Shown here: positions 4,065 to 63,720 of the stretch, one piece after another
How positions within the stretch are numbered: the stretch's first letter is position 1
How the letters are laid out: each line of letters begins with the position of its first letter
Assembly: GCF_036588685.1 (NCBI RefSeq)
Contig: NC_086377.1
Coordinates: 20,212,001 to 20,276,000, forward strand
DNA: 64,000 bases
Direction of reading: 5' to 3'
Origin: Mytilus trossulus
Taxonomy: Eukaryota
The notes under the pieces: model-generated
Seen by the model: the letters and a program-made list of their open reading frames with translations, nothing else
Database searches by the model: none
What the model was told of the DNA's origin: nothing
Position numbers and translations under genes: made by a program

Positions 4065-4541
4065 CTTGGCTAACATAGAGGAAGTAGGATATTCCATAAC
4101 AGACCACACTCTCGCTTGTACAGACCTCCATCCGTTCCCGCCGGCCATCGTCGCTACTATTTCAAACATAGTATTTCTTTTGCATTCCCCTTCCTCTAAA
4201 ACAGTTAAAACTTGTAGGTTATCAAAGTATGAAATATATTTAGTGAAGCAACACGATTCTAATTCAGTTTCTGGTAATCCCCAAAATTCCAGTTCTTCGT
4301 TAAATTTCTGTGGACATATGTCTTCTGGCATGTGTAGTTTTCCACCATTTAAATAATCAAATATATTGTTTGTAGACGTTGTGTGTCTGTTGATTTGAAA
4401 GTCCATACATTTAGAATCATCCTTAATTGTTGCTAAGATATGATCTGCGGCATCTGAGTTAGTTTCACGAATTCTTTTTAATAGTTGATCTGAAAATTCG
4501 TGTTTTATTCCTCTATTTGAAATACAACGTCCTCCTGCCAT
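4065..4541 (-). CDS. Voltage-gated K+ channel (Kv3/Shaw-like), coding exon 1 (T1 domain), paralog 1; exon 2 not in the window
   Basis: 159 codons ending ..EYPTSSMLAK with a GT donor at 4064. Contains the T1 zinc motif HX5CX20CC (HMPEDIC..EELEFWG..SCC). Closely similar to 47955-48431. Confidence 0.85.
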
Positions 4542-5984: not shown

Positions 5985-8900
5985 AATAATAATAATTCTT
6001 TATTCCTTAAGCAAATATACAGCTCATAGGATTAAATACATACACAAATTATACAGTTTACATAAACATATACATAAACATATACAGCATTAATATATAG
6101 CGGAGTTTGGCATACAATTTACATTGGTAATAAAGGTAAAAAATAAAAATCAAGTGTTACGAATTTTCTCTGCCTCGTACAGGTGTTTACCCAGATTATT
6201 TAATTTTTTGATATTTCTTACAGATAGTAATTGAACTTATTTGAAGGTAGATGGGTTTTTGTAATAATATATCTTAATATATTTACTTCTGACATTTACA
6301 TATTTATCACACTCTAATATAAAATGATATTCTTTTCGATTATTTTCTTATTACACATATTACAAACACGCTCATTTCTGGAAATATTAAAGTATATTCC
6401 AGTTTCTACATTAAGTGAATGTGAATTGATTCTATATTTAGTTACATATGACTGATATAAACTGTTCTATGGTCGATTCAAATTAAATTGCAAAGTATGT
6501 CCTTCATGTATATATTGATATAAATAACATTTTGAAGTGTTTTCAAAAAATGACAAGGCCTCGGCTATATAATTATCAACAATTCTTTTTTTAAATTCAT
6601 GCAAAAATAATTGACTATTTCCAACACTTTGTGCTAACCATATATTATTAAATCCATACCTGTTTAGTATGTCTCTTATTTTACAACTCCAATTGAGTTT
6701 ATCATTCGGTTTGACAAAACTAGATTCGTACATATCTTCATAAATACTATTCAATATACAATTATTAGATTCTAATAACGTCAACCAATAACGTACTATT
6801 CTTACATATCTATTAACATACAATGGTAAACACCCAAGTTCAAAATACACCATATGGTTCACAGTCGTTTTTCTCACTTTCAAAATTCTTTTTAAATAAT
6901 ACAAATGAAGCGTTTCTATATCAGTTCACTTATGGAAACCCCATATTTCACAACCATATTTCACAATACTTGTTACATATGTATCAAAAAGGGACATCAA
7001 AGTCTCAGTGTTATAACAATCATCATAAATCTTACTCAATAAACAAAATGTAGCCTTTCTACCCTGTTTAGATAGTGTTTTCTGTGTTACAGTAAAAGTA
7101 CCATTATAGTTTAATAAGAAACCAAGATATACAAACTGATCACACATTTCTATCATTTTACCATTCAAATACCATTGTTCGTTCTCTTTCAGTACACCTT
7201 TTTTACGAAAAACAAATATTTTGGTTTTTCTTAAATTAATATCAAGACCATTCTTTAATGAACTATCATATACAGTCACTATCATTTTTTGTAAATCAGA
7301 AATACTTTCGCTGAAGAGAACTGTATCATCAGCATACATAAAAAGATAAAGATTTAACAATTTTACTTCATATGGTTCTATTCCTTGTTTAATTAACTCA
7401 ATTTCTATGTCATTTACATAAATTGCATATAAAAATGGTGATAATGATTCGCCTTGCATTAGGCCAACATTACAATGAATGAAATCTGAAAATTCACCAT
7501 CTAATTTAACACAAGTTTTTAACATAGAATACATTGATTTAATAAGATTCAGTAAATTTCCACTTATACCGCATTTCAACATTTTTTGCCATAAAACATA
7601 ATGTGACACTGTCGAAAGCTTTGACAAAATCAATGAAACAACAATAGAGACGCTTTCCTTTACGTTAACTTTTGATGCAATAGAATGAAGGGAAAAAATC
7701 GCGTCGTGTGTACCATATCCAGGGACAAATCCAAATAGCGCATCAGTCAATATACTGTATTCTTTGCACCACTTCAATAGTCTTGTATTAATGACAAAGG
7801 TAAACAATTTCCCAAAATGAGACACAAGCGAAATTCCTCTGTAATTTCCTGTATCATCAACTTGACCTTTTTTAAATAGCGGAACTAAAACACTCTTGAC
7901 CAATATTTCTGGAAACCAACCGGTAATAAGTATTACGTTAAAAAGTTTACATAACTGTGGCAGTAGGACTAATTTACACTCCTTCAAAAATTCATTTAAT
8001 AGATTGTCATAGCCTGTTGCTTTTTCAGCTTTCAATTTTTTAACGCAAACATCAATTTCTTGCTCCGTAAAAGGTCGGTCCATTTCTTCGTAAATGACTT
8101 CATTGTTGACTTCTACTTCCGGTCCATCGTCAATTTCTTCTTTAGAAACTAAGTTTTTAAAATGAGTCACAAAATCGTTTAATTTTATGTTGCTTTGTTT
8201 GGCCTTTTTTCGTTTCCTGAATTTTCGATAAAAGTACTTTGGATTCGTTTTCTCATAGAACTCAACATGTTTCCTCTCTGTTTTTTATATCGTCTTTTTA
8301 AACTATTCTCACGTCGTTTAAATCTTTGTTTCGCAAGATTTAAAATTAGTCTGTTTTCTTCAACAATCATTTTGGCTAAATTGTTTCAATGAGCGTTTAT
8401 ATTCAATATATACAATTATTTGCAGTCATCAGTTATCCATGGTTTATCTTGTCGTATATTTATAGGTTTATAAGTTCGCTTTAAGCTGTTACAATAATCA
8501 CATTTTAAAACTTTAGTCACTTCTGTTTTTGTATATTTATTGACAATATCTGAGAGACACGAATTAATATTGTTCACAATTTGGTCGATATTCCTTGGCT
8601 CGTCGGATAAACTATTCATCAGTTCATTAACTTTATCGGAATTTGCCGCAAGGTCCCTTTGAACGTCATCTTTAAACCCTTCATTCCATTTATAACAATC
8701 ATATTTAACAGTTTTACAAGTACATATTTCATTTAAAGTTAATCCTTTAAGTTTAAAAACAACTTTTATCGGTGCATGACATGAAAAAGTAGTAAAATCA
8801 CCAATGACAAAATCATTAACAATGGAAAAAGAATCATACGATAAAAGCAAATAATCAATTATGCTACATCCATTCTTATTTTGAAATGTAAAAGTTTCAC

Positions 8901-10940
8901 TTTTTTTTCCAAAACGACCATCACATACTCTTATACCAGAAGATTTACATAAGTTCAAAATTTTACGACCAAACGAATTAGCCGGCATTATGTCCTCTGT
9001 TGTTCTTTTACTTGGTAGATCAGGTTCATAATTAAGTAAATCAGTGTTATTGCAGTCAAATACATTTAAATTGTCTTGCATTATGAAGTCATTTTCTAAA
9101 CCTATTCTTCCGTTGAGATCACCAATCACTGCAATGTTACCCAATACACTATAATGTTCTATTTGTTCCTGCAAAACATCAAGGACATCTAAGTCATACT
9201 TTCGGTAAAACACATTATTATCAGGGGGCATATATATAGCACACAGATACAAATCTTTACTATCAAACATAATAACATTGCTTATTTTTAACCATATCAT
9301 ACTATTAGCACAACAATGCAATACCTCAATATACGGATTTAACCACTTTCTATAGAAAACAATTACTCCTCCTCCGTTGCACTTTTCCCTATAAACAAAC
9401 TTTTTATCATAACCATTTAATTCGAATTCCGTCGGGCATTTGACCCAGCACTCATTAAAGCATACGATATCACAATTTGTTATTTCCATTAAAAATTCTT
9501 TGTCTGTTAGTTTCCGTAACAGACCTTTATATATATTCCATGAGCACACATTTAATGAACATTTATTACACTTATCACTTTCAGCAGTAGTACAGCCATT
9601 CTCGGCAAACTCCTATTCCTGCCACAACTTTCCTTCAACGAACAATTTATCCCCTACTAGATATGCCTCTTTATTTTCTTTACGTTTTTCCTTCATCACT
9701 GGTATCATTTTGTTTCGTTTTAATAACACCTCTGTCGGGTACTGAGGACTAATCCCAAATTTTGTCTGTCTTAAGCGACCCGAAGCTTTTCGTACCGTTT
9801 CTCGATCACCGAATTCAGAAAACTTCGGGTTTCTGGCATTCGTCTTTTTCCTACCAAGTCTATAGGCTTTTTCGAGTTTTATGCACTTTTTAGTGTCTTT
9901 AATGTTCAACCTTTGCTCGAGAAAATCTGTAATAATGTTCATGCTATTTTCTGGTTCTTTTTTTTTGCGCCGCATTCGCCTCCTCGTGATCACCCTGTGC
10001 CCCGTTTATTCCGGTATCCATTTCAGCAACTTCACTTTGTTCATCGATAGCAACGAATAGAAGGTTATTGCTGAAGTTTTGTTTTTCAACGTCGACAAGT
10101 CTATTTTTCACATTTAAGTTAACTGTAACTGGTAACTGTTTTTGAGGTTTCTATGCTTTCAGACACCTTTTCAAGTTTCTTTTTAATAGCTTGGTGTTCA
10201 TCCGTTATATCGGACATGAATTGGACACTATGTTCAAGCGTGCTTATTCTGTCCTTGCAAGCTTTCACATCAACATCAACAGCACTAAATTTCGATTCGT
10301 ATTTGTTTAATCGCTCTTCAATAGAGTCTAAGTTGTTTAGTTTTGTTTCCATCGAATCAACTTTTTTACATAGTTCATTTAGTATCCTCTCAATTCCGTT
10401 TGTTGCTATATGAAACGGCAGGGGTGGGGGTGGCGGTGGTGGACTGGGGTATTGTTGAAACTGATAGGGCTGGCCATGGTACTGGAAATTTGGTGGACTT
10501 GATTGAATGGGTGTGTATTGACTAAATCCCTGATTAATCGAATTGTTCATGTGTGTATTTTGATTGTAATTAATAGTAGGTGAGTTGTTGTAAAGACACA
10601 AGAAGGCCTCGCTTAGTGTATCTGTTAATAATACCTTGTTTTCGTCACCCTTTATGTCATCTGAACACTTTTTCTTCTTTCCTTTTGTTAACAAAGAACT
10701 GTCACTTGTCGAGCCTTCAGATGAATTATTTCCTTTAGCCTTTTCCCTCTTTCGTTTTTTGTCCTTTTTATCCTTTTTGTCCTTTTTATTTTTTTTGTCA
10801 GTCTTTTTGGGCATTACTAATCACACATTTAAATCCAATACAGATTTACTAATGCTGCATATTCACAAGTTTTACGCATTTTAATATCATAATTTAAGAA
10901 CGAAAATTTTCACTACCATTCAAACTGGCGCATGCGTATA
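5985..10940 (-). mobile_element. Near-full-length decayed LINE (CR1/L2-group-like): ORF1, APE endonuclease, RT
   Basis: ORF1 pieces 10814-10119 and 9993-9613. APE 9549-8416 (SWNI, NECW, GDLNGR, IDYLL, SCHAP). RT 8170-6926 (NYRGISL, QGESLSP, YADD). C-terminal pieces down to about 6150. 3' AATAAA followed by an (ATT)n tail near 5985-6003. Several frameshifts; clade assignment is tentative. Confidence 0.9.
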
Positions 10941-24790: not shown

Positions 24791-25025
24791 AAATACTTAC
24801 AAAACACAGTTACATATTATCACGCCAATGCCAAGTCTATGAATTTTTTTTCACTTTTTACAACCTAAATAAATGTTTTAAATCAAATATGATGATTTGA
24901 TTCAAATCGGTGAACATGAACTTGACAGCTAGTACCCCTTCAAAATAATTTTACAAATACAATATTTAAAACAATATTGATGTTGATACAGCAATGTGTT
25001 TTTTTATTTCCTATCATAGGCAATC

Positions 25026-26733
25026 ATGGCTTCATCATCGGAAGAGTTTTGTACGCTCTGTGGACAGCTCCATATAACAAAAGTAGCTGAAATATGGTGT
25101 TATGACTGTCAAGATTATCTTTGTTCTGATTGCCGAAGACCTCATAGTGTTTCAAAATTGTCTAAACGACACACTTCAGTTGCAATTGACGAGTACAGGG
25201 CATTTCCAGCCTACATCCGATCAATTAAACACGTCTGTATGGAACACGACGAGCAGTTTGATTCTTTCTGTCGAACACACAACGTTACTTGTTGTAGAAA
25301 GTGCATATTTTTAGAGCACAAATCTTGCACAGACGTATCACTCTTTGAAGAAACGACGCTAAACACCTTACACGCAACAAAATTATCGAACACAGAACAG
25401 GGCGTACACGATGTCAGAGAATATATACAAAAAGTAAAGAAAGACCGGGTTAATAACAAGCGAAAAATTTCAAAACAAGAACAATCAGTAAAAGAAGATA
25501 TAAATAAAGTTCGTAAAATAATAAATGACCGCCTTGATGATATTGAAAAGACGACTTTGAGCGAACTTTCTAAAGTGGTGCAGACTGAAATCAAAAGCAA
25601 TGATCGATCTATAAATACATTAGATACGATCGAAACTGATGTTACAAATTTATCACACAACGTTCAACTTTTGAGAGAAAATGCAACCAATATGCAAATT
25701 CTTGTAGGGATTCAGGCAATAGATACATCATTGGTGTCTGCTGAACGAAATCTAGAGACTTTCCGAAAAGAAGGAAATACAGATATTAGATCAATCATAT
25801 TTAAGGCTGAAAATGTTGACACCATTCTTAAAGATGTTAATACCCTTGGTACTTTAGAAATTTCAAAAACATCAAGTGGTATTGATATAACTGAGACCAA
25901 TTCGGCACAAGCGCAGATTGTCCCAATACCTTCAAATACGCATTCTACAGTTTCTCTGCAATTAAATAAAATTATTGAAATCTACCACACGGATTCGAAT
26001 TATTTGATATGCGGTTGTACATTCTTGACCAATCACGACGTGTTAATAGGTGAATTTACACGTGATGGTTACTCTAATCAATTGTTTTGGGTCAATAAAC
26101 GAGGGTATGTCAAACGATTACAAGTTGAGAAAGGCACTCCAATATTTGATATAGAAAATGTGTCGAAAGATGGATATACAATTGCAATCTCTACCCGAAG
26201 TAATAAAGTTTTTCTTTTAAATTTGACAAATTCGAAAATTACAGAAATACCAGTTAATGGCAAAACAAATGGCATTTCATATCACAATGGTACACTTTAC
26301 TGTTGTGTATCACCCAAAAGGAATTATTAGCCTGAACATTGATGATGAATCAACCAATGCGTTTGATCTCCTTCCGTATAGTTGCAAATTATACTCGTAC
26401 ATAGCAATTTATAATGACCATCTTTACTATACGAAAACCGAGACAAGTATTGAGTGTTGTGATACAAAAGGAAACGTTATATGGACTTTCGAAGACACAC
26501 ATATCTTAAAGCAACCACGTGGTATAGTCGTCGATAAAAATGAAAATATCTTTGTAGTCGGTCGGCGTTCTGCAAATGTGGTAGTTATATCAGCAGATGG
26601 TAAAACATGCAGAGAAGTTTTAAATAGGGATTCTGGACTGAGTTGCCCTAGAGCTATTGCATACGACAGGCAATACAATAGATTGCTCGTTTGCAACAAT
26701 AAATCGAAGGCTTTTATTTATGATATTGTGTGA
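25026..26733 (+). pseudogene. RING-less TRIM-like protein (two B-boxes, coiled coil, NHL/beta-propeller repeats) with one frameshift (pseudogene or assembly indel)
   Basis: ORF 25026-26330 has B-box1 (CTLC..CYDCQDYLCSDCRRPH..H), B-box2 (CMEH..FCRTHNVTCCRKC..H) and a coiled coil. ORF 26257-26733 continues in the +1 frame with NHL-like blades (LKQPRGIVVDKNENIFVVG, LSCPRAIAYD..RLLVCN). The frame switch is near 26310-26320. A splice acceptor (catag) lies just before the ATG. Confidence 0.8.
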
Positions 26734-32690: not shown

Positions 32691-35600
32691 GTAAGTAAAA
32701 GTAAGTAAGTAAATTATTTATTATAGTGACATGTGTAAATATGTACAGATTAGAATTATACAATATATGATAAATATCAATACACCCGCCCCAATGGACC
32801 TATAAGTCACCTCAAATGAAATTAAGTAATTTTAAAACAATATATCACGTTCTTCAAAATAACAAATTATTCATGAAATTATCTTTTTGTTGACGAAATT
32901 TAACCTTTAATTAATTTTAAAATAAAAATACATAAATATTAAGCTATTTGTAAACAAAATTTCGTCTTTTAGAATATGCCTGTACAATGTATTTGGCTAG
33001 TTTTCGAGTATGGCTAATATTTAAAAGAAAAAGTTTTTCATTAATGTTCATAGAAATAAAGGAAGTAGTTAACAAAAGTTCACCAAAAACATGTTCTCGT
33101 ATATCAGAATAGAATGTACAGTCTAGTAAAAAATGAGTTTCAGTTTCTGACACGTCTGAAGTGCAAAATTTGCAAAGTCTTTCTTCTGGTCTTTCAACTA
33201 TATATCGTCCTGTTTCTATCCTCAGAGGTAATATTCCACACCTGAATTGTGCTAAATGTGAGCGTTCGACTTTGGTTAAATTAAATTTTACATACTGTTC
33301 CTGATTAAAGACAGCTTTGAAAGTTACATAGGTACGAAGTTTTGGTACTTGTTGTATATTGTCATTCCATATGTTTGAATAAAGTCGCTGAATGTTCATT
33401 TCTACAGTTTTCAAATTAACAGCTGTTTTTGAATCAAAATAATGTTCTAGATGAAGTTTACAGAAAATGTCCTTCAATTCGCTACACCAATTGTCGGTAC
33501 GAAGTTTTGGTACTTGTTGTATATTGTCATTCCATATGTTTGAATAAAGTCGCTGAATGTTCATTTCTACAGTTTTCAAATTAACAGCTGTTTTTGAATC
33601 AAAATAATGTTCTAGATGAAGTTTACAGAAAATGTCCTTCAATTCGCTACACCAATTGTCGGTGCATCGGTTATAGTCTGCATTAAAAGCGATCTTCGTT
33701 ATGCGATCATCTTCAAACTTGACTAGTCTGTTCCAATACCTCACCATGTTTGTCCATCTTCGAAACTGGCTAGGGACCCATCCAACATCACCATGTAAGG
33801 CGAGAGTAGGCGCAAAACGGTGAACACCAAGAAAATATCGTATTGTACGGTTTTGAATATTGTCTATTGTTTGAAATTTTCGGTATCCCCAGACACTTGA
33901 GGCGTAATCTAAGATTGGAACTACACACGAGTAATACAGTTTTTCGTAGGCATTGAATCCGAAGTCTTTATTGTTGTGAATTTTAGATATGATTGTTCCT
34001 AGTGCTCTTCCACCGCCATTTGACTGTTTATCATTGACTTGTCCATGCCGAGGGTACTGAATTTGAAACAGAAGCCTACTTTCAAAGTATCACTAGTCTG
34101 ATCCAGCAAGATCGGTATTATTAAAGGTTGCTGGTTTAATAAAAGAACATTCTTATTCTTTTCATTCTAGGATTATGCTGAAAATACTATGAATGAACTT
34201 CTTGGCTTGTATGGTTATGACAAATTTTCGACATTGGTTTTGAAATTTCCGTTATGACTGAATGTAATCCCTAAATATTTGTAATTTTCAACCTTCTCCA
34301 ATTTGTTTTTACCAATTGTAAATTCGAAATTAGTTTCTTTGGTTTTTGGTTTTCTGAAATGAATACACTTGGATTTATCTGTTGTTTACACCATTGGTGA
34401 AGTGTATTCAGCATACACTGAAGATCCTCAGCCGACTTTGCAACTAACGCTATATCATCCGCATACAATAATAATGATAACTTCGTTTCAAGTAAGTCAA
34501 CCCCAAGATTAAGGTCATTAATTTCTTGTACAAGATCGTTTATAAATATGGAGAACAATGTCGGGGATAAATTATCTCCCTGTTTCACACCAGTTTAACA
34601 GCAGCACCACGATGTTAGTTTACCGTTTATACGAACACAGGACTCAGAACTTTGGTATATACTTTTGACAGAGTTGTATAACTTCCCATCAATTTTGTTC
34701 AGCAAAAGTTTGTATAACATCATATCCCTGTCAATAAAATCAAAACATTTCTTCAGATCGATGAATGCAACAAATACTGATTTATTATTTCTTATAACAC
34801 TATTCAAAGTAAATATATGGTCTTCACACGATCTGTTTTTTCTAAACCCATTTTGTTCGTCGGCAAGAATATCATCGTTATCAAGATTACTGACGAGCCG
34901 TTGATTAATAAAAGAACTATACAATTTGCTAGTGCACGACAATAGACTTATACCTCTGTAGTTCATTGGTACTCGGAGATCTGATGACGGGTCCTTCAAG
35001 ATTGGACATATGATGGCTTTTCACCATATGGTTGGAATTATACTGGTGTCAAATATTAGTTGGAAGAGCTGTTGTAATGTTTGAATGATTATTGGGTACT
35101 TTAAAACGCCGTATGGAATTTGGTCGGGTCCACCTGCTGACTTTGATTTTGCATGCATTACAATTTTAGTTATTTCGTCAATCGTAATATTAGAGTTTAA
35201 ATTTTCATTCGGCATAAATAACGGATCTTCCATTTCAGATTCCAATAACTGTTTGTGAACTTTTGACTGATTATAATGGTCGTTTTAAAATTCTATGTTG
35301 TTTTTCCCGTTGTAAAGATTTTCAAAATCAATACGCCATTTGTTAAGTACGTCCTCCTCGTTTGTTAAGATTTCCCCAGATTCATCAACGACTTCCATCG
35401 GAATATCCTTTACTTTTCGAGGACCAAGCTTTCTGATCTTTTCCCAGAATTCATTAGGATTCGTTGTTACCATTGTTTCAATATCGACTGCCATAGCTTT
35501 CTTGTATGTCCGTTCTGTTCGTCTAAGATTTTTATCAAAAACATCTCTCGCTTGACTGTACTCGCGTCTGATAGCTGATTTAACACTTCGATTTCCGTTA

Positions 35601-38017
35601 CACTGTATAAATTCATTTTCTTTATGTCGCATATCATTCCATAAATTCGTTAGGTTATCATTCCAATATGGTTTCCGGTTTTAAAGTCTTTTGTTAGCTC
35701 TATCATATCCAGTTTTAGGTATTTTTTCGTTCATTTCGGTTAAAATTACAGTGCACAAATTGTCATAAATTTTGTCTACATTACCTTGGGTTTCCCTACA
35801 TCGCTCAATTGTTTCAATTACCTCAAATAGTGCGGACCTTCTTATATCACTTGACATGAAATCTAACGGAATGCGATCAAGCATGAAACGCAGTTGACAG
35901 TTAGTTTGGTCTTTAATCCTATACGATAGTCCATGCTGCGTAACATTAAATTCACACATAATAACCGAATGGTCAGGTAATTTTGATTTGTCACCAATTA
36001 GATCTAGCAACATATTGTCGTTAATAATTGACTGAATAGTTAACACCTTGAAGTAATTCAAATAATCGTAAATATCCTGCGGGACGCATATATAATCTAC
36101 TACGGCTTTCCCTTTTTTCGATATTGAGGTAAAATTGTCGTTAGGGAATCTTCCGTTGAGTACACAAAATTTGGCTTCATTCAGAAAATCTAATACTTCG
36201 TGTCCGTGCTGGTTAATACTTTTGTCTATCGGGTGTCTTTTTGGTAGATTATCGATATAATACAATGTTTCCGAAAGACTTCCAATTCGTGAATTAAAGT
36301 CTCCTATCAAATATATTCCATCATTCTCGTTATTCATGTATATTTGCGATAATAGATGTGCATAAAAACTTTGAGCATCACGGCCTCTACTTGAGTTCTC
36401 GGGAGGCAAAACACACGCAAATACAAGAAATTCAAATTCTGTTGAACGGCCGGTAAACTTAATTCCAAGAATTCCATCAAATGACTTATCAACCACGGAG
36501 ACATTAAAAAGTTCAAGTAGCCAGTTTTTTACAAGTACCCCGACTCCACCAGATGCTTTAGGTGCCTTTTTGTGTATTTTCAATCTGTTAAAGCCAAACC
36601 ATGTATACCCAGGGACACAAATATTATCTTCGTTAGTAAGATGAGTTTCACATACGGACATTATATCACAATTAGTTGCTTTAATAATTTCAATTCTCAA
36701 TGTACTGTTTTCATTAGTCCATCCACAAACATTTAAATGACAGAGTTTAATGGAGTCAATAGGCCGGGTGGGCTGCTACCGGTGATCAGTTTCTTGGGTT
36801 TCAGGTTGTGTAGTTGGTTGAAGATTTCTCGATTTAATGTGTCCGTTTGCATCAACACGTAGACTTCTTGCTTGAGCATTAGGTAGATTACGCAACACTG
36901 CATGGGCATTCATTTCGATCAAGCGTTCTATTCGAGATTTACTGCTTTTTATGTAGACTTTATTGTATATGGCATTGTCTTTTAGTTTCATTTTGTTTCT
37001 CAGAACTTGTACCTTTTCATGCGTGCTTCGAAAGCTTATTTTCACGATTCCTGGTCTGTTGGTGGATCTTGTTGGTAAGCGTACCGCACCAGTTACTCGA
37101 ACGTTCTGGGTAACCTCATCTCCAAGAGCGGAAATTAAGCTCTCGGCTTTTTGTATCAAATTTTCACCTTCAGTAACCGGAATACCACTGGCTGTTATTG
37201 TTATTTCATTGTTATCTAACGGGTTTCAGGGTTGAACTGTAGATAATATACCGTTATCATTACTGTTTAATAAGTGAGAGTTGATCTGTTTTCCTTGTTC
37301 TTCAACATTGTCTATACGTGATTGAATTGACTGAATGGTATTAATTATTTGATCGGTTCGGTTAGTTTCTCTAGCAAGATCTAGTGATATTTCATCACGA
37401 AGTGTTCTAATTTTGTTGTCAACACTAGCAATGAGATCAGTTTTCAGTTTGTCAAGTTTAGACTCAAACATGCGTTTCATACCCTCTTGACCAACTTTCA
37501 AATCTTGAACAACTTTTATTAATGTATCTAGTTTATCGGAAACGGGGGAATCGACGTCTGCTTGTTTTTGTGGGTTGCTGCTTGATGCCATTTTTGTTTC
37601 TTTCGTGTTCGACTTTGGTGTCTTTGTTTTCTTTGGTGGTTTGGGTGTTGATGGATTTAATTTATCAGAATATAAATCAGCGAATACACTGTTATCAAGT
37701 TCATCAAATTTCCCACTCGAGTCGTATAATATAGAGTTAGTTTGATTCAACAATTCACTCACCGATATACTGGTATCGTGATTACTACTCGTAGGGTCCT
37801 CGGGTTTGAAATGTTTTGGTTTACAGTCTTGTTGTGAATCACTACCACTACTGCCCCTGTTCCCTTTTTTTTCATTTATTCTGTTTCTCTTTATCCTTTG
37901 TCATTTATGAGTATTTGACCGTGTTTTTGTTCACAATAAAAGGTCCATATAATCACATTTTAGAATTTCAGGAGAGTGAAAAATTTACACGTCCATTTTA
38001 CATAAGTCACGTGATAA
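32691..38017 (-). mobile_element. Full-length decayed LINE with 9-bp TSD
   Basis: ORF1 37762-36776 (frameshifted). APE 36700-35681 (CETHL, GGVG, GDFNSR, VDYI, PDH). RT 35632-34271 (NYRGISL, QNGFR, QGDNLSP, YADD). C-terminus to 32944 (LRIETGRY..CKFC..HFLLDC). (TTAC)n tail at about 32691-32710. TSD ACCGTGTAA at 32682-32690 and 38018-38026. Confidence 0.92.
34025..34217. mobile_element. 193-bp insertion in the LINE ORF2, solo-LTR-like
   Basis: Splits the peptide ..VENLS|NGGGRALG.. and is flanked by a TGAC duplication (34021-34024, 34218-34221). Starts with TGT and contains AATAAA, but ends TA rather than CA. Confidence 0.5.
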
Positions 38018-47954: not shown

Positions 47955-48431
47955 ATGGAGAAAATACGCTACATTTCAAATAGAGGTGTAAGACACGAGT
48001 TGTCGGATCAAATTTTTGGGAGAATTTGTGAAAGTAACTCCAACGCTGCTGACCATATCATCACAACAATTAAGGATGAATCTAATTGTATGGACTTTCA
48101 ATTCAATAGACATACAACGTCTACCAATAATATATTAGATTACTATAGTGGAGGGAAACTACACATGCCTGCAGACATATGTCCACAGAAATTCTCTGAA
48201 GAACTTGATTGTTGGGGTTTACCAGAAACTGCATTAGACACGTGTTGTTTCACAAAGTATGTTTCCTATTTTGATAACTTAAACATTTTGAAAGTGTTAG
48301 AAGAAGGTGAATGTAAAAGAAATACTATGTTTGAAATAGTAGCAACGTTGGCCGGCGGGAACGGATGGAGGTCTGTACAAGCGAGAGTGTGGTCTGTTAT
48401 GGAATATCCTACTTCCTCTGTTTTAGCCAAG
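47955..48431 (+). CDS. Kv3/Shaw-like K+ channel paralog 2, coding exon 1 (T1 domain)
   Basis: 159 codons with HX5CX20CC (HMPADIC..DTCC) and a phase-0 donor AAG|GTAATA at 48432. Splices in frame to 53506. Confidence 0.9.
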
Positions 48432-51400
48432 GTAATAATGATTTATGTCAGTGAGTATTGAAGTAATTTTTATATTTAGGAGGTTTGTTACTCAGTTTCA
48501 AAATAACAAGTTTTTCATAACACTATTATATATTCATAGGAATTTAATAAAAGAACCAAAAAAGCAAAACAACATATATACATGTAGATCAATGTGTCCG
48601 TTTTCGATATAATAACCATTGAAATTTTGGCGGGAAATTGTTATCTCTTAATTTTTCATAGCTTCATCATTGACAAGTTTAAGTTCTCAAAAACTATTTA
48701 AAAATAACAAAGAATTTAAAAGACTTTAACAGATGGCTTATAATTATACAAGTAAAATACTTATAATATGAAAAATAGGGGTCAAAGGTCAAAACTGTTA
48801 AGTTTTCATATGGATAAACCCAGATGATTCTGAAAATCTGGCAAAAGTCTCAAAATCTGACAAGCGAACATCCGTAATGTACATTTGAGACAAGATGGAA
48901 TGTACAATTGATTCATGCTTGATGAACGTCCATTGCCGAGTATTTCATAGAAATTCAGGATTAGACAGATGAAAAACATTTAGGATTAAAATATAGCTAA
49001 GCAGAACAGTATAAACGGCGGACTTTTTTTCTCACAATGCAAATTTACGGTATGTTGATAGAGTCATATATTTGCCTTAAGTTTAAGACGTGCAACCTGT
49101 GGACTGATGTTGTTTGTCTTCCTTTACATTTGCAGATCATGGCGATCTATTCATAGATGTAAGAAAATGTTAATAAAGTGTAAAATATGACAACTATCCA
49201 TCGAAGTCATAATTTGTAAAAGTAAACCATGCAAGGTCAAAGTATATACTTCAACACGGAGCAGATCTACATGAATAATGCTTTTATGAGTAAAGCGAGT
49301 TTTTCCCAATTTTCCGCAATCGACAAACTTTTGTTAAAAAGGTAATCAAATACAAATTCGTGAGCCACTCCGTGGTCAACAATTAAATTATGTTAAAATC
49401 TATGCTTTGAAGCTGCTACGAATAATGTAACGATATGTATCATATTTTACAAATTAAATTTCAGATGAATAGTATGCTCAATTTGTAACCTATAATTACA
49501 AATCACATAATCAAGGTATTCGATTATATAAATTTATATTTCTTAGTAAATACAAAGTTTATATATATCGACACCCCTATGATCTACTATAGAAGGTTTT
49601 ATTTTAATAGTTTTAGAGTTTATACAACGTCTTCATTTTTTAATAATTTAATTTAGGATGTAACGCGTCTTCTGATTGGCTGGAGTTATCTTGTTATCAG
49701 CCCATAGGCATAATTTAGTCATGTGACCGTGACGTCATCAACGTTTTTCATGGTTTTCTCCGGTCTTATTTAGTGTGCACCAATTTTTTATGTTATTTTT
49801 TCATAGACAGAAAAAAATATTAGTCATTCCTTAAATTTTTTTTTTGTTCAATCAGAAGTCCAAAACTGGCGAATTTAAAAACGGATCTTACCAAAATATC
49901 AATAAACTCTCATAGTGCTAATATAACAAAAAATGAATAAAAAAAATATAGTGATCAATTTTTTTATGTTTAATTGCTGCGAAAATGCAAAAGATAAGTA
50001 TTACTGACGGACAAATGAAGGCAATACATGACAGAGTATTTCAATCTTTTGACTATCACATTTCATTGGATATTGAAAAGCATGTTGATTTTGTTAGAGA
50101 GAAGGCTCCTACTTTAGCTTTTGAATAAAATGAGTTATTCGGAAGTTGTTCGTACCAAATGAATTACATCGTATTAATGTTGATTCATTTATTTTCGTGG
50201 ATATCAATTTTCGTGGATTGCTGAAAACTTGCATATTCGTGGATATCTAATTTCGGAGTTTTGCCAATCTCTGTATATACAAATCCTTTTGCAAATATCT
50301 TATTCGTTGAATATTTGATTTCGTGGTTCACCTGTACTCCGTTAACCATTTACTAGTCTTCTGTTAATTCAAATCATTACAGAAACAAAATAGAATAAAT
50401 TGATTTGAAAAAACAGTATAACAAAAAAAGTAAGATAATTGTCAGTGTAAACTTTTCATTAGAACAAAATGACATGAATTGACATAAACAATGTCTGATT
50501 ATATGAATTATTATTAATATGATATATTGATTTTGGTCTTTTGGATAATTGCATTTCAATGAATTATTTATCATATTTATATACTAGTGTAATCTGACTG
50601 TTTAAAAAATAACTATAACGATATTTTATTGTGTAATATAAAACAATTAATGGTATATCAATTCCCTATTGGGTATCTGAAATCAATATGAAAATCTTAC
50701 ATGTTTGTGGTCAATCTTTTTCAACCAGCAGTAAACAAAAGACCAATTTAGTATAAAAAAAAAAAAAAAAATAATTTGCTTCTATTTTTGAGTAAATTTG
50801 AGTAGAAGTTAGTTGTTTTTTCAAAGTATTGTTATCTTTTTACGTTTGGTTTTTTCTATAGAGCATACATTACAAGAGAGATGAACACTTTAAAGAAATA
50901 ATTAAACTAATTTTTCGAACACAAATGGATTGTTGCTAAAACAAAAAAAACACACCCAACACAATATACAAAACTACAGACTATACAGAGCTATACGAAC
51001 TTCATCCAACAGGGGTTAGTAGCAGGTGCACCGGAAGAATAAGCAAATTCTACTAAATATAAGGCACCTGTCGTGTTGGTTAGTTACAAAAATGTACGTT
51101 GAAAAGGGCGGCATTTTGGCAACTAAATTTGGAATATATCAATCCTCATCTTTGGTGACATCCCATTAGTCCGACAACCATTATTCCGACAGCCCATTAC
51201 TCCGACAGCCCATTATTCCGACAATGCATTTTCTTGTGTATGGGTAAATTTTCTCTAAAAAGACCAACTCCATTCTCTGTTATACTTGCGGTTGTCCGTT
51301 TTGATCCCAATGTATACATTATTCTTTCCATGCGGGACATAAGTCTCAGTATATTCGAGTTGATACGCATGCTTATTGCAACTGCTCATTCCTTACCCTC

Positions 51401-53267: not shown

Positions 53268-53505
53268 CGCAAATTCTACAGTGATTGCAGAAAATCATAA
53301 TAAATTTGTCTTTTCAATAAATTGTTCAAGAATCATACAAAGTGCTGTAAGGTATTTCAAATATTATTGTTGTGTAAAAGTACATTGTAAATAAAGTAAA
53401 AATCAAAACGAAAAAAAAAATACTGTAAAAAAAGCTCAAAAGACATTCTGTGATATAATGTTATAATTAACAGAATTAACAGATTTTCTATTTTTTTACA
53501 TTTAG

Positions 53506-54363
53506 GTATACCTATACGCCAGCAATGCTATTGTCCTGCTGTCTTTGTTCCTACTGGTCAGCAGTACACATCCGTTATTTAGAAGGAAATTAACAAAGGA
53601 TGAATGGTTTGATTACTTTACAACAGAGGAAGAGGAAATGTACGACGATTACTGGAACGAAACATTGAACGACACAGGAATAAAACTGCCAAGTCATGTC
53701 TACGTTGAGATTGGTGCTCTGTGGTATCTCAAAATGATAACTTTGGCTTACTTTACGACTGAACTTATCTGTAAACTTATAGTGTTCCCTTTGCCATGGA
53801 GGGAGTTTATTACGATTTTAAACTTCATAGACGTTTTAGCCCTGGTTGTAATGTATACCACGCTCATTGTTAATCAAGTGAATCCTAAAGAACAATATAA
53901 GGATTCTGTACACGATGCCGTGCATTCACTGCAGATATTCAGAGTCTTTCGATTGTTTAGGTTGGTACGGCACATTACTGGTTTTCGAATATTGATGTAC
54001 GCGCTACGGGCTAGTATTGGAGATCTATTAGTTATGTTGCTAGGTTTGTGTACAGCTGTTTTACTGTTTTCGTCTCTCGCCTACCACTCGCAAGATTCTG
54101 CCTTTTCAAATATCCCTGATGCAGCTTGGTGGGCTATCATCACTCTAACGACAGTTGGTTATGGAGATATCTACCCGACAACTATCCAAGGCAGGCTGAT
54201 TGCTTCAATGTGTGCACTAGTTGGGGTGTGTCTTTTTGCTCTTCTGATACCAGTACTTGTTAATAATTATCACTTATTTTCCTCTCATTATGCTGGAATT
54301 GAAAGACGACAGAATTTAAAGATACAACTGTTGACTAGAAAAACAGCAGTGTCACCAAAATGA
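53506..54363 (+). CDS. Kv3/Shaw-like K+ channel paralog 2, coding exon 2 (S1-S6 and pore); full protein about 444 aa
   Basis: Acceptor tttag at 53501-53505, in frame with the ORF 53545-54363. S4 FRVFRLFRLVRH, pore AAWWAIITLTTVGYGDIYP, S6 ..LLIPVLVNNY. Confidence 0.92.
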   Translation, partial: VYLYASNAIVLLSLFLLVSSTHPLFRRKLTKDEWFDYFTTEEEEMYDDYWNETLNDTGIKLPSHVYVEIGALWYLKMITLAYFTTELICKLIVFPLPWREFITILNFIDVLALVVMYTTLIVNQVNPKEQYKDSVHDAVHSLQIFRVFRLFRLVRHITGFRILMYALRASIGDLLVMLLGLCTAVLLFSSLAYHSQDSAFSNIPDAAWWAIITLTTVGYGDIYPTTIQGRLIASMCALVGVCLFALLIPVLVNNYHLFSSHYAGIERRQNLKIQLLTRKTAVSPK

Positions 54364-54884
54364 AGTGAAAAAAAGAAAGAAAGTTGTGTGATTATATTTG
54401 GTGTCTTAATTTTCGTGGATTGAGGAACCCCTGCATTCAATCTCCGTACAGCGCTCGTTTCCTTTACTTAGTACACTACACTACAATGATATTTAAGGTA
54501 GTGATACGAAGTAAGTCCGGAACGGATGTGAGCTCTGCGTCGGATATTGCCCTGCATTATTGTGAAGGCTAGATGTCGTCTTTATGATCAAGTCTGCAAA
54601 CAAACATTTAGTACTTAATTGAATACTCAAATTTGAATTTAGGTTTTATTCCTCAATCCATTAAAAAACAGTAACAAATGAATAACAACGAAACCACAGT
54701 AGTTGGAAGTTAATATGTAGATGTATTGATAGGTGTTGTATTGAAAATTGTTTTATTCTTCTACATTAAATATGGAATATATAATATGAAGATTACTGTC
54801 ACATGTCATTTGAATCTATAACTGGTGATTTCAGACATGTTACGTTAACAGCTCATTTCACCTGTATGTTGGTACTAAGCTATA

Positions 54885-55565
54885 CAAAAATGTGGTATAA
54901 GTGCCAATTAGACAACACTGCATCCGAGTCACAATTTATAAAAAGATGTGGTATAAGTGCCAATTAGACAACACTGCATCCGAGTCACAATTTATAAAAG
55001 ATATAGTATCAGTGCTAATTAGACAACACTGTATAACAAGATTTGGTATAAGTGCCAATTAGACAACACTGCATCCGAGTCACAATTTATAAAAAGATGT
55101 GGTATAAGTGCCAATTAGACAACACTGCATCCGAGTCACAATTTATAAAAAGGTGTGGTATAAGTGCCAATTAGACAACACTGCATCCGAGTCACAATTT
55201 ATAAAAGATATAGTATCAGTGCTAATTAGACAACACTGTATAACAAGATTTGGTATAAGTGCCAATTAGACAACACTGCATCCGAGTCACAATTTATAAA
55301 AAGATGTGGTATAAGTGCCAATTAGACAACACTGCATCCGAGTCACAATTTATAAAAAGGTGTGGTATAAGTGCCAATTAGACAACACTGCATCCGAGTC
55401 ACAATTTATAAAAGATATAGTATCAGTGCTAATTAGACAACACTGTATAACGAGATTTGGTATAAGTGCCAATTAGACAACACTGCATCCGAGTCACAAT
55501 TTATAAAAAGATGTGGTATAAGTACCAATTAGATTAAACTGCATCCGAGTCACAATTAATAAAAA
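54885..55565 (+). repeat. Higher-order minisatellite (55-56 bp and 40 bp monomers; 207-bp higher-order period)
   Basis: Monomer GATGTGGTATAAGTGCCAATTAGACAACACTGCATCCGAGTCACAATTTATAAAAA. A short variant starting ATATAGTATCAGTGCT recurs at 55001, 55208 and 55415. Confidence 0.93.
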
Positions 55566-56329: not shown

Positions 56330-58860
56330 CTGAAGAAATATCCTCTTCCTTGAAATTTTTTCTCAAAAATCCATAAATGATGGAAAAATCCCAGAAGAAT
56401 GGAAACAGGCAAATGTTATCCCAATTTTTAAAATGGGAGATAAGCATAACGAAATAAATTACAGGCCGGTTTATCCAACAGATATTTGCTGTAAGTGTAA
56501 AAAACACGGCATAACAAGCAATATTAGAAAACATTTAGATTCATATAATATTTTAAATGATTGCCAACATGGCTTTAGGAGAAAACGTTCCTGTGAGGCA
56601 CAAATTGTTATCAACATACCGGACCTATCCAAATATTTGGCAGATGGTTATCAGATCGATTATATTTTTCTAAAGTTTTCGATAAGGTTCCCCAACAAAA
56701 CTTAATTACTATGGTATACGTAAAAAATAATTTTCTTTGAATAAAAGGTTTTTAGTCAAACTGGCAACAGGAAGTTCTACTTAACGGTGTGCAATCTTCC
56801 AAATAAATGTCGAAATACGCATCTGGTGCAAGAAAATTGGTAACGTTAATTTTATTACTACCATTGGGTCGATGCCTCTGCTGGTGGACTATTAGTCCCC
56901 GAGGGTATAACTACCTCAGTAGCCAGTACTTCGGTACTGGCATGCAAATACGTATTTTTTGCGTTATTAAAATTAGCTGTTACAAAATGATAGAAATTAT
57001 TATAAATTAAGGAATGTATCTCCCTCATGCAAAGCTCTGATTCCTTTCACGGATTTGGCTATACTTTTTAGACCTTTTGGATTAAAGCTCTTCATCTTTT
57101 ATATAAACTTTGGATTTCAAATAGTTTGGCCACGAGCATCACTAAAGAGACATGTATTGTCGAAATGCGCATCTGGTACAAGAAAATTGGTATCGTTAAT
57201 TTTATTCCAAATTAGATGTTGACTCATGGCGCAGTATTAGGACAAACTTTATTTTTGTTATTCATAAACGACCTACATGTACAAGTATCGGAGCATGTCT
57301 CCTGTAATGATCGTCTTTTTGCTTGCTGACGTCTGTATTACATTATAAAACATCTAAAAATATTAATGAGTCTGGCGCACTCCAAAAAGATCTATCAACC
57401 TCACAAAATAGGAATCTGCAGATCAAATTAAATTTAATCCTGAAAAATAGGATGTCATAACTATTTCTAAAAAATCAAAACCTAACTTATTGCAATATAA
57501 ATAACATAATCATGTACTTGAATCTGTCAAAGACAGCAAGTACAAATGTATCTGAGATTTACAATAAGCAATGATCTTGACTGGGGGCATTTGTATAATA
57601 TAACTTCTAAGGCTAATAAAACACTAGGCTTTCTACACAGAAACATGAACAACTTAACACGTAAGGTTAAAAACCATACGTACACATCACTTGTTCGTCA
57701 TATCGTCGAGTACTCCTCCATTCCATTTTATATTTTCCTGCTAAGAATGTGATATTTTACTTATCATTGTTAACTACATAAGTGAAATGTATAATGAGAG
57801 AAACAATTATAATAGATATAGGAAGATGTGGTTTGAGTGCCAACGAGACAACTCTCCATCCAAATAACAATTTAAAAAGTAAACCATTATAGGTTAAAGT
57901 ACGGCCTTCAACACGGAGCCTTGGCTCACACCGAACAACAAGCTATAAATGGCCCCAAAATTACTAGTTTAAAACTATTCAAACGGGAAAACCAACGGTC
58001 TAATCTATATAAACAAAACGAGAAACGAGAAACACGTATATATTACATAAACAAACGACAACTACTGTACATCAGATTCCTGACTTAGGACAGGTGCAAA
58101 CATTTGCAGCGGGATTAAACGTTTTAATGGATCCAAACCTTCTCCCTTTTTCTTAAACAATAGCATAACATCACAACATAGAAAACATACGATAAAATAA
58201 TGTCAATATATGAACTGTGTAGTTGATGGCTCAACATATTTTTTGTAACATAAGCATAATATTTTAATTGATAATTTTAGAGAGGAGACATGCTGCCAAA
58301 AATAGTATTATAATCAATACTAATAATCTATGTTTTTGTTTTTCTTTCAATGCTACATGTTTGTAGTGTTTAATGACTATCGTTTTGTAATTAATATGCC
58401 TGTCTGCTTGTTTGTTTTTGTTGTGTATTTTAGTAACAATCCTATTGTTTGGATTTTATACTAATAAAACTCTTATTCTTATTCTTATTCTTATACACAA
58501 AACCAATTAACCAAATTGAGCAGAAACAATGAAAGGCAGCAAAATATGGTTTAATGACTATAATGGTAGATCACCAGGAGCTGTCACTGGTACATGTACT
58601 AGTATGTTTAAAAAACTTAAATGGGAAAACTTACAATCCTGCTGAATTAAAGCTTAACTTATTTTTATTTATAAGATTAATGTGGGGGGGGGGGGGGGGG
58701 GGGTCGTTAATATAAGTCACTTATAACGTCCTGGCTCAAGCTGACAGGCGTACTAGAGGACAACATAATTTAAACAAAATATATACAAATAAAGACTTTT
58801 TTAGGTCATCTTTTTTTCCCAAGCACTATTGCTGTCTGGAAGCAATCTGCATGTCACCCT
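56330..58860 (+). mobile_element. Highly decayed non-LTR retrotransposon RT fragment interrupted by younger repeats
   Basis: Peptides GDKHNEINYRPV, QHGFRRKRSCE, ISNDLDW..SKANKTLGFLHRN..YTSLVRHIVEYSS, with many stops. Confidence 0.7.
56809..57205 (+). mobile_element. Retrozyme-like repeat, 350-nt unit bounded by direct hammerhead-motif repeats
   Basis: GTCGAAAT[A/G]CGCATCTGGT[G/A]CAAGAAAATTGGT at 56809 and 57159 (period 350). The second copy is preceded by CTAAAGA-GAC-atgtatt (mutated CTGANGA core). Confidence 0.72.
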
Positions 58861-63240: not shown

Positions 63241-63720
63241 ATGGCAAATGTTATTTACACGATAAATAACAAGGGTGACAAATTTGAAATTTCGACAATA
63301 ATTTTGGATAAAATTACGTGTAATGGGTCAAGTGCTGGTAAACAGATAATATCTGATCTAACTGAGGACAAAACAGCAATTGAATTTAATTTCCATCGAC
63401 ACCAAACTTGTACATCCAGTATATTGGACTTCGTAAGAGGAGATTTATTACATATCCCAGCAGACGTCTGTCCAAAGAAATTCCGACAGGAAATGGAATT
63501 TTGGGGAATACCTGAAAATGAAATAGCAACTTGTTGTTTCACAAAATATCAAAGTTTTTTGGATGATGAGAAAACATTAAGAGTTTTACAACGAGATGAA
63601 AATACGCGACATGAGAGAAAGGAAAGAGTACATGTACTTAGCAAATACAAGGGATGGAAGGCAATACAGGCAAAAATGTGGCAAGTTATGGAATATCCAA
63701 GCACTTCAATCATGGCAAAG
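63241..63720 (+). CDS. Kv3/Shaw-like K+ channel paralog 3, coding exon 1 (T1 domain); remainder beyond the window
   Basis: 160 codons with HIPADVC..EMEFWG..TCC, ending EYPSTSIMAK|GTGAGT at the same intron position as the other two paralogs. Confidence 0.88.

Follow-up and report, generated by a model that had tools for sequence, protein, structure and literature searches.

In Drosophila Shaw, the S4 positions R1 and R2 are occupied by Glu and Ser (PMC2217114, PMC2217113), and transfer of these residues into Shaker was described to shift activation by only about +10 mV (PMC2217114). The canonical Shaw of the mussel genome analysed here (L014) carries Asp, Glu and Ser at R0, R1 and R2, so that the absence of R1 and R2 is an ordinary condition in invertebrate Kv3. 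The flatworm channel N.at-Kv3.2 of Notoplana, for which a natural omega current has been reported, carries His (R1) and Gly (R3) in S4 together with an Asp in S2 (PMC2443804). Regulatory Kv subunits have been related to the S6 gate by a rule derived from mouse and sea anemone only. As described in PMC6279357, gate Pro1 and Ile5 both have a frequency of 1.0 in 27 homotetramer-forming subunits (Table S2), the gate is atypical in 42 of 43 regulatory subunits, and Ile/Leu takes the place of Pro1 in NvShakR2,3, which are verified regulatory subunits (Table S2); 88% of regulatory subunits retain Pro1, and that study detected no signature for them in the T1 sequence. A silent Kv3 subunit, Kv3.5, is reported for vertebrates in a preprint that also notes lophotrochozoan Kv3 duplications (bioRxiv 10.1101/2025.09.21.677649), and 13 Shaw genes are reported from Lottia as part of a lophotrochozoan Kv3 expansion (PMC3519636).

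The gene described here lies on the forward strand of a 64,000-nucleotide stretch of Mytilus trossulus DNA (the window) and is already annotated as KCNC-like: its two coding exons give 444 aa with no difference from record P0268, named 'subfamily C member 2-like [Mytilus trossulus]'. The coding part of exon 1 (47955..48431, +) encodes a divergent T1 (BTB) domain, matched by Pfam BTB_2, in which the HX5CX20CC zinc motif, a hallmark of Kv2/3/4 T1, is present. Its donor (AAG/GT) joins exon 2 in phase 0. Exon 2 follows a canonical AG acceptor as one open frame of 285 codons (53506..54363, +) that encodes S1-S6, the pore and a short C-terminus up to the stop codon, and matches Ion_trans (Pfam) with an E value of 1.6e-34. 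The initial annotation had assigned the channel to 53506..53990; the residues named there lie within this range, but it stops after S4 and the exon reaches 54363. With its T1 domain, S1-S6 and a GYG filter (TTVGYGD, 54148..54168, +), the protein has the make-up of a Shaker-family Kv subunit. Compared with its sister paralog (L002; Nei-Gojobori, one pair), exon 2 has a dN/dS of 0.19 (bootstrap 0.12-0.27) and S2-S4 a value of 0.13, while the comparisons with L003, L004 and L005 are unusable because dS is saturated. The same gene is recorded in five Mytilus species, mostly at full length. The gene is under purifying selection and is not decaying. Contigs from 4 of 21 listed runs, presumed by a guess to be RNA, all cover exon 2; among the matches listed, two contigs start at 53504 by the acceptor and one stops at 48434 by the donor. 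None of the matches listed from these four runs spans the exon-exon joint and no listed sequence-run holder of the gene is on record as RNA; the contigs thus give a weak hint of expression. An AlphaFold model of exon 2 (mean pLDDT 76, pTM 0.53), silent on the resting state, was closest to Kv3.1 in a VIA comparison (Z 13.7, rmsd 7.9, 224 aligned), in a tie with Nav and Kv1.3.

For the voltage sensor we use Shaker position names (E283, R1, R2 etc.). S4 (53914..53970, +) carries Asp at R0, His at R1, Gln at R2 and Arg at each of R3-R6, the codons of Asp137, His140 (CAT) and Gln143 (CAG) starting at 53914, 53923 and 53932. The outer counter-charge site of S2, in the Shaker E283 column, is Lys76 (AAA, 53731..53733, +), and the charge-transfer centre, formed by Phe83 and Glu86 of S2 and Asp109 of S3, is intact (53752..53832, +). 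The acidic site at the end of S1 is Ser (AGT, 53563..53565, +); in the same genome it is Lys in canonical Shaw L014 and Asn in Shab L006. The extracellular S1-S2 loop (53578-53712, +) is strongly acidic: its 45 residues include 12 Asp/Glu but only 5 Lys/Arg. The S4 register was upheld against Kv2.1 structures and against the Shaker orthologue of the genome, L012. HMMER aligned the His to the Gln of Kv2.1 'VQIFR' and the Gln to the next Arg, with a gap-free S4, and MAFFT and HMM alignments with L012 placed the Lys in the E283 column, the His at R1 and the Gln at R2. The earlier reading of R1 as His and R2 as Gln, of an outer S2 acid changed to Lys with the Phe and the inner Glu kept, and of a Ser at the S1 end with the S3 Asp and TVGYGD intact is borne out by these data at every site. 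A different register, in which a Kv2-like S4 one turn shorter would keep R2, was rejected because the C-terminal anchor is gap-free and the tree described below rejects a Kv2 origin. Lys occupies the outer S2 site in all 15 Mytilus records spanning S2, and His/Gln occupy R1/R2 in all 10 Mytilus orthologue records, one being P0268 itself, which rules out an assembly error or a private allele. The gene therefore has the outer S4 charge gap, with R1 and R2 neutral or His, that is found in gating-pore channels.

Placement of the protein in Kv3 (Shaw) is supported but not strongly. In a Kv1-rooted tree of 39 T1 plus membrane sequences, with exons paired by proximity, the mollusc clade to which it belongs was recovered (100/99) and fell on the Kv3 side with Shaw L014, L019 and P0089, a group that includes an amphibian Kv3-like protein (95/82); this tree has moderate support and long branches. 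Grouping of the clade with Kv2 was rejected (p-AU 0.0115). The earlier assignment to a Kv3-like channel is thus maintained by the tree, the rejection of Kv2 and the T1 zinc motif. It is only moderately firm, because phmmer with the membrane part ranks Kv2.1 first and the tree of that part leaves canonical Shaw outside. The T1 scores are nearly tied (55.7 bits for Kv3.1 and 54.5 for Kv2.1), and the T1 is strongly diverged from that of canonical Shaw.

The locus shares with invertebrate Shaw (Drosophila Shaw, L014) the T1 zinc motif, the Kv3-side placement, the GYG filter, non-basic residues at R1 and R2, Asp at R0 and a non-acidic S1-end site. It departs from Shaw by His/Gln instead of Glu/Ser at R1/R2, Lys instead of Glu at the outer S2 site, Arg at R5, the gate LIPVLV in place of PVPVIV and a much diverged T1. 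With N.at-Kv3.2, going by its published description, it has in common the Kv3 family, the R1 His and a conserved central pore; the sensors differ in that the mussel gene has Gln at R2, Arg at R3 and Lys in S2, against Gly (R3) and Asp (S2) in the flatworm. The set of residues that marks the flatworm channel (R1 His, R3 Gly, a short acid in S2) is therefore absent. The initial annotation had invoked the proton pore opened by R1-to-His and the flatworm Kv3 as precedents: both are published, but the sensor does not match that of the flatworm, and since the flatworm S2 residue is Asp, the Lys points away from its mechanism. The altered S6 gate and the lineage-specific expansion recall the regulatory subunits NvShakR2,3, NvShawR, Kv5/6/8/9 and Kv3.5, and the change of Pro1 to Ile/Leu recalls NvShakR2,3 as described; in contrast to these subunits, the origin is independent and gate position 6 is still Val. 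Two partial Lottia proteins in Table S1 of PMC3519636 have the same Asp-x-Gln S4 and the same loss of Pro1. From the totals given we infer that they were counted as Shaw; the accessible text of that source neither describes the S4 signature nor assays these genes. Canonical Shaw L014 itself (G000:C11:24919640-24920212), with Lys at the S1 end and Asp/Glu at R0/R1, is a possible natural charge swap, and its Lottia orthologue has the same residues at these sites (PMC3519636 Table S1).

Homologue searches gave 311 domains at >=85% cover, of which 293 lacked a prokaryote-type S6 and 289 could be read at the trait sites; the 289 still include some domains that are prokaryotic or not Kv. With the trait columns left out, FastTree recovered a clade of 78 domains (support 97); those of its members that carry a name come from bivalves and gastropods (Mytilus, Saccostrea, Pinctada, Mya, Mercenaria, Ylistrum, Solemya, Haliotis, Patella, Plakobranchus, Physella). 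Throughout this clade R2 is nearly always Gln (72/78) and R0, one turn above R1, mostly Asp (61/78), R3, R4 and R5 are basic in 78, 77 and 76 domains, and GYG is present in 77. Gate Pro1 is missing in all 77 domains with a letter there. R1 varies (His 18, Glu 18, Asn 9, Asp 7, Gln 7, others), and the outer S2 site is acidic in 62 domains, Lys in 6 and Arg in 2. Gln143, R3-R5, Phe83 and Asp109 belong to the slowest rate class; His140 and Lys76 lie at the 65th-66th percentile, ordinary overall and fast relative to other sensor sites. A subclade of 30 domains, drawn from mussels, oysters, pearl oysters and clams, keeps His at R1 in 18 of them and Asp at R0 in 28. Given the existing annotation and the published mollusc Kv3 expansion, the gene is not new in itself. 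What appears to be new, from these alignments, is the clade signature, in which R0 is Asp, R1 varies, R2 is almost always Gln and gate Pro1 is missing; neither a description of this sensor nor a functional test was found in the open-access literature. Outside the mollusc clade, P0153 (Lingula anatina) and P0157 combine an S4 of the Asp-His-Gln type with an S2 Asn, either by convergence or as an early branch. P0140 (Solemya), P0179 (Patella) and P0148 (Batillaria) show separate outer-S2 Arg/Lys with R1 and R2 both lost.

The gene is the middle one of three linked paralogs. Exon 1 of an inverted sister lies at 4065..4541 (-), with its exon 2 (L002) just left of the window; L002 is 85% identical, with Tyr at R1, a residue found in 6/6 Mytilus records of the sister, and Lys (AAA) in S2. 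Exon 1 of the third, tandem paralog lies at 63241..63720 (+), with its exon 2 (L003) just right of the window; L003 is 57% identical, with Asn at R1 and Glu (GAA) in S2. Inspection of orthologues and paralogs, which the initial annotation had proposed as a check, thus confirmed His/Gln in the orthologues but not the R1 residue in the linked paralogs. A further paralog, L004, has His at R1 and Glu (GAA) in S2, so that the linked His+Lys, Tyr+Lys and Asn+Glu genes together with L004 (His+Glu) form a natural mutant series. The genome holds 55 Kv matches, of which 50 were fetched and 48, including some duplicate copies, passed the coverage filter; among these, 28 are non-basic at R1 and R2 alike, the outer S2 acid is missing from 12, R1 is His in 3 and S2 carries Lys in 2. 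Sensor charge is reduced still further in other Kv paralogs: L037, L038 and L046 (G000:C8) have Gln at R3, and L044, in which Asn replaces the S3 Asp, retains just three basic S4 positions; GYG is kept in all four and the alignment is less certain. These four would be stronger candidates for gating-pore or voltage-independent channels. Two T1 exons, L073 and L074 (G000:C12:5843848-5852575), lie upstream of the lone membrane exon L004, with ambiguous pairing.

The losses of charge in S4 and of counter-charge in S2 had been taken as a pair, selected for altered gating rather than due to decay. Selection is supported by the dN/dS values, but a coordinated loss is not, the loss of R1/R2 predating the Lys. 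Thirteen of the 20 His/Gln domains, including oyster, pearl-oyster and clam relatives and L004, still have an acidic S2 residue, and within the clade S2 Lys is limited to the six-domain Mytilus group L001/L002, a single base separating its codon from the Glu codon used in L003 and L004. On this distribution the S4 change came first: the loss of R1/R2 is old and the S2 Lys late, in two Mytilus paralogs. The paired-loss reading is further weakened by the retention of the S2 acid in most of the clade and by the variable R1 His. In favour of the earlier reading, among the 289 domains the S2 site is non-acidic in 36 of 119 domains without R1 and R2 versus 2 of 170 others (pooled Fisher p about 1e-13, relatives being not independent); independent pairs, 8 only, gave a median p of 0.5, and S2 Lys/Arg requires 4 changes on the tree. 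The association fits permission, in which an acid without a partner is dispensable, equally as well as co-selection. Relaxation at the Lys and His sites is plausible because both are fast compared with other sensor sites.

The S6 gate reads LIPVLV (54244..54261, +) where the consensus is PVPVIV: the hinge Pro1 is lost and position 5 is Leu, an atypical gate of the regulatory kind when set against the Table S2 frequencies and a feature that the initial annotation had passed over. Since Pro3, Val4 and Val6 are retained and Pro3 evolves slowly, this gate is altered but conserved, not degenerate. Pro1 is also lost in other mollusc Kv3-like clades, which may simply gate differently. Maturation of Shaker relies on pairing of E283 with R3/R4 (review PMC7059764), so that Lys at this site would be expected to be costly in a homomer. 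Taking the gate and this expected cost together, we favour a K+-selective, low-charge regulatory subunit with a predicted sealed sensor that modifies the gating of a Shaw-type partner, and give this reading about an even chance. Co-assembly with a canonical Shaw-type partner, as a candidate mechanism, would shift the gating of the partner while the sensor stays sealed at rest. With gating charge on R3-R5 only, hyperpolarisation would park Gln143, and not His140, at the Phe83 plug, leaving His140 one turn outside, near Lys76. This late substitute for the outer acid may pair with Asp137 at rest, much as in Shaw the S4 acids may be partners of its own S1 Lys; in the outer crevice, Lys76 would also keep cations away. 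Loss of the outer acid would make the up-state less stable, giving high-threshold gating or a need for partner subunits, and the loss of gate Pro1 would mark a relaxed need for homotetramer function. Against the regulatory reading, it leaves the near-invariant R2 Gln unexplained; against a sealed sensor, R1H and R2Q are reported to leak in Shaker and Nav channels (PMC3982104, PMC10651576). If the regulatory reading is right, the locus would add a further independent origin of silent Kv subunits and offer a direct test of the S6-gate rule.

That the subunit forms a self-sufficient homotetramer, high-threshold and weakly voltage-dependent like Shaw and with no regulatory role, would agree with the function of Shaw at a net S4 charge of +3 (PMC2217113) and with the conserved pore, Pro3 and T1 zinc motif. 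We hold it to be rather unlikely, the gate differing at Pro1 and Ile5 from all 27 known homotetramer formers, the S2 charge being reversed and the T1 being far diverged from canonical Shaw. An ordinary central-pore K+ subunit whose gating would respond to external pH or divalent metals by way of two outer-crevice residues, His140 and Asp137, a reading compatible with the regulatory one and with the other rivals, is possible but somewhat doubtful. The subclade frequencies of His and Asp, the His in all ten orthologue records, the Asp-His-Gln of the brachiopod P0153 outside the clade and the acidic S1-S2 loop speak for such tuning, but the R1 rate is unremarkable (65th percentile) with many residues among the 78, and the adjacent Lys would be expected to depress the pKa of the His and to cost the site one ligand for metals. 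A decaying duplicate, whose substitutions would be neutral damage, could be imagined among 55 Kv matches with at least one internal stop (L023) and from the fast Lys and His sites; the open frame, the canonical splice sites, the dN/dS of 0.19 and the records from five Mytilus species largely refute it for the gene as a whole and make it highly improbable. The Kv paralog L023 (G000:C4:44719356-44719901) has an in-frame TGA right after S4 and sits in a cluster of related genes.

A gating-pore channel, in which the His/Gln double gap at R1/R2 passes protons or cations at rest, was the proposal of the initial annotation. The register is confirmed and the gap is real. Reviews report that Shaker R362H conducts protons, that R2Q in Nav1.2 and Nav1.5 gives inward current and that double gaps are enough in Shaker (PMC3982104, PMC10651576); R1H is described to leak in Hv1 too (PMC5065317), and the flatworm Kv3 is a natural example (PMC2443804). 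The R2 Gln is among the slowest sites, and R1 His is kept in 18/30 subclade domains. However, the flatworm sensor differs at R3 (Gly) and in S2 (Asp), and the shorter acid E283D is reported to enlarge the omega current, a change opposite to Lys. R1 is Tyr in the sister paralog and Asn in the third, the central pore is conserved, and Shaw has a natural R1/R2 gap; for the ESS mutant, normal outward gating is described in text that is not concerned with leak (PMC2217114). For this gene we regard the gating pore as quite improbable. Ci-VSP, for which anion omega currents are described, lends no support to an anion pore here, since neutralisation of its S2 acid D151 gave no leak (PMC10686229). It is unlikely, though slightly less so, that the clade as a whole fixed the R2 Gln for resting conduction, with paralogs tuning passage via R1 and the outer S2 site, in which case the orthologues of the L004 type, with His plus acid and retained from mussels to clams, would conduct a natural proton leak. 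If so, natural gating-pore channels would form a widespread mollusc family and not a single flatworm case. Because the regulatory model does not account for the conserved Gln, leak is the property best motivated for testing; it is this Gln-R2 clade, rather than the Lys of the gene, that merits it, and the His+Glu paralog L004 is the best choice.

The window holds several other features. Just downstream of the gene lies a minisatellite (54881-55565) with a 207-bp period, 3.3 copies and 98% matches, composed of 56-bp and 40-bp units. At 25020-26733 (+), two overlapping ORFs of 436 and 168 aa in different frames, with an apparent frameshift, resemble what we take to be a B-box/TRIM-like protein. 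Fragmented ORFs at 6467-10820 (-), 32944-37900 (-), 1538-2846 and 56334-56705 are presumably pieces of non-LTR retrotransposon endonuclease/reverse transcriptase.
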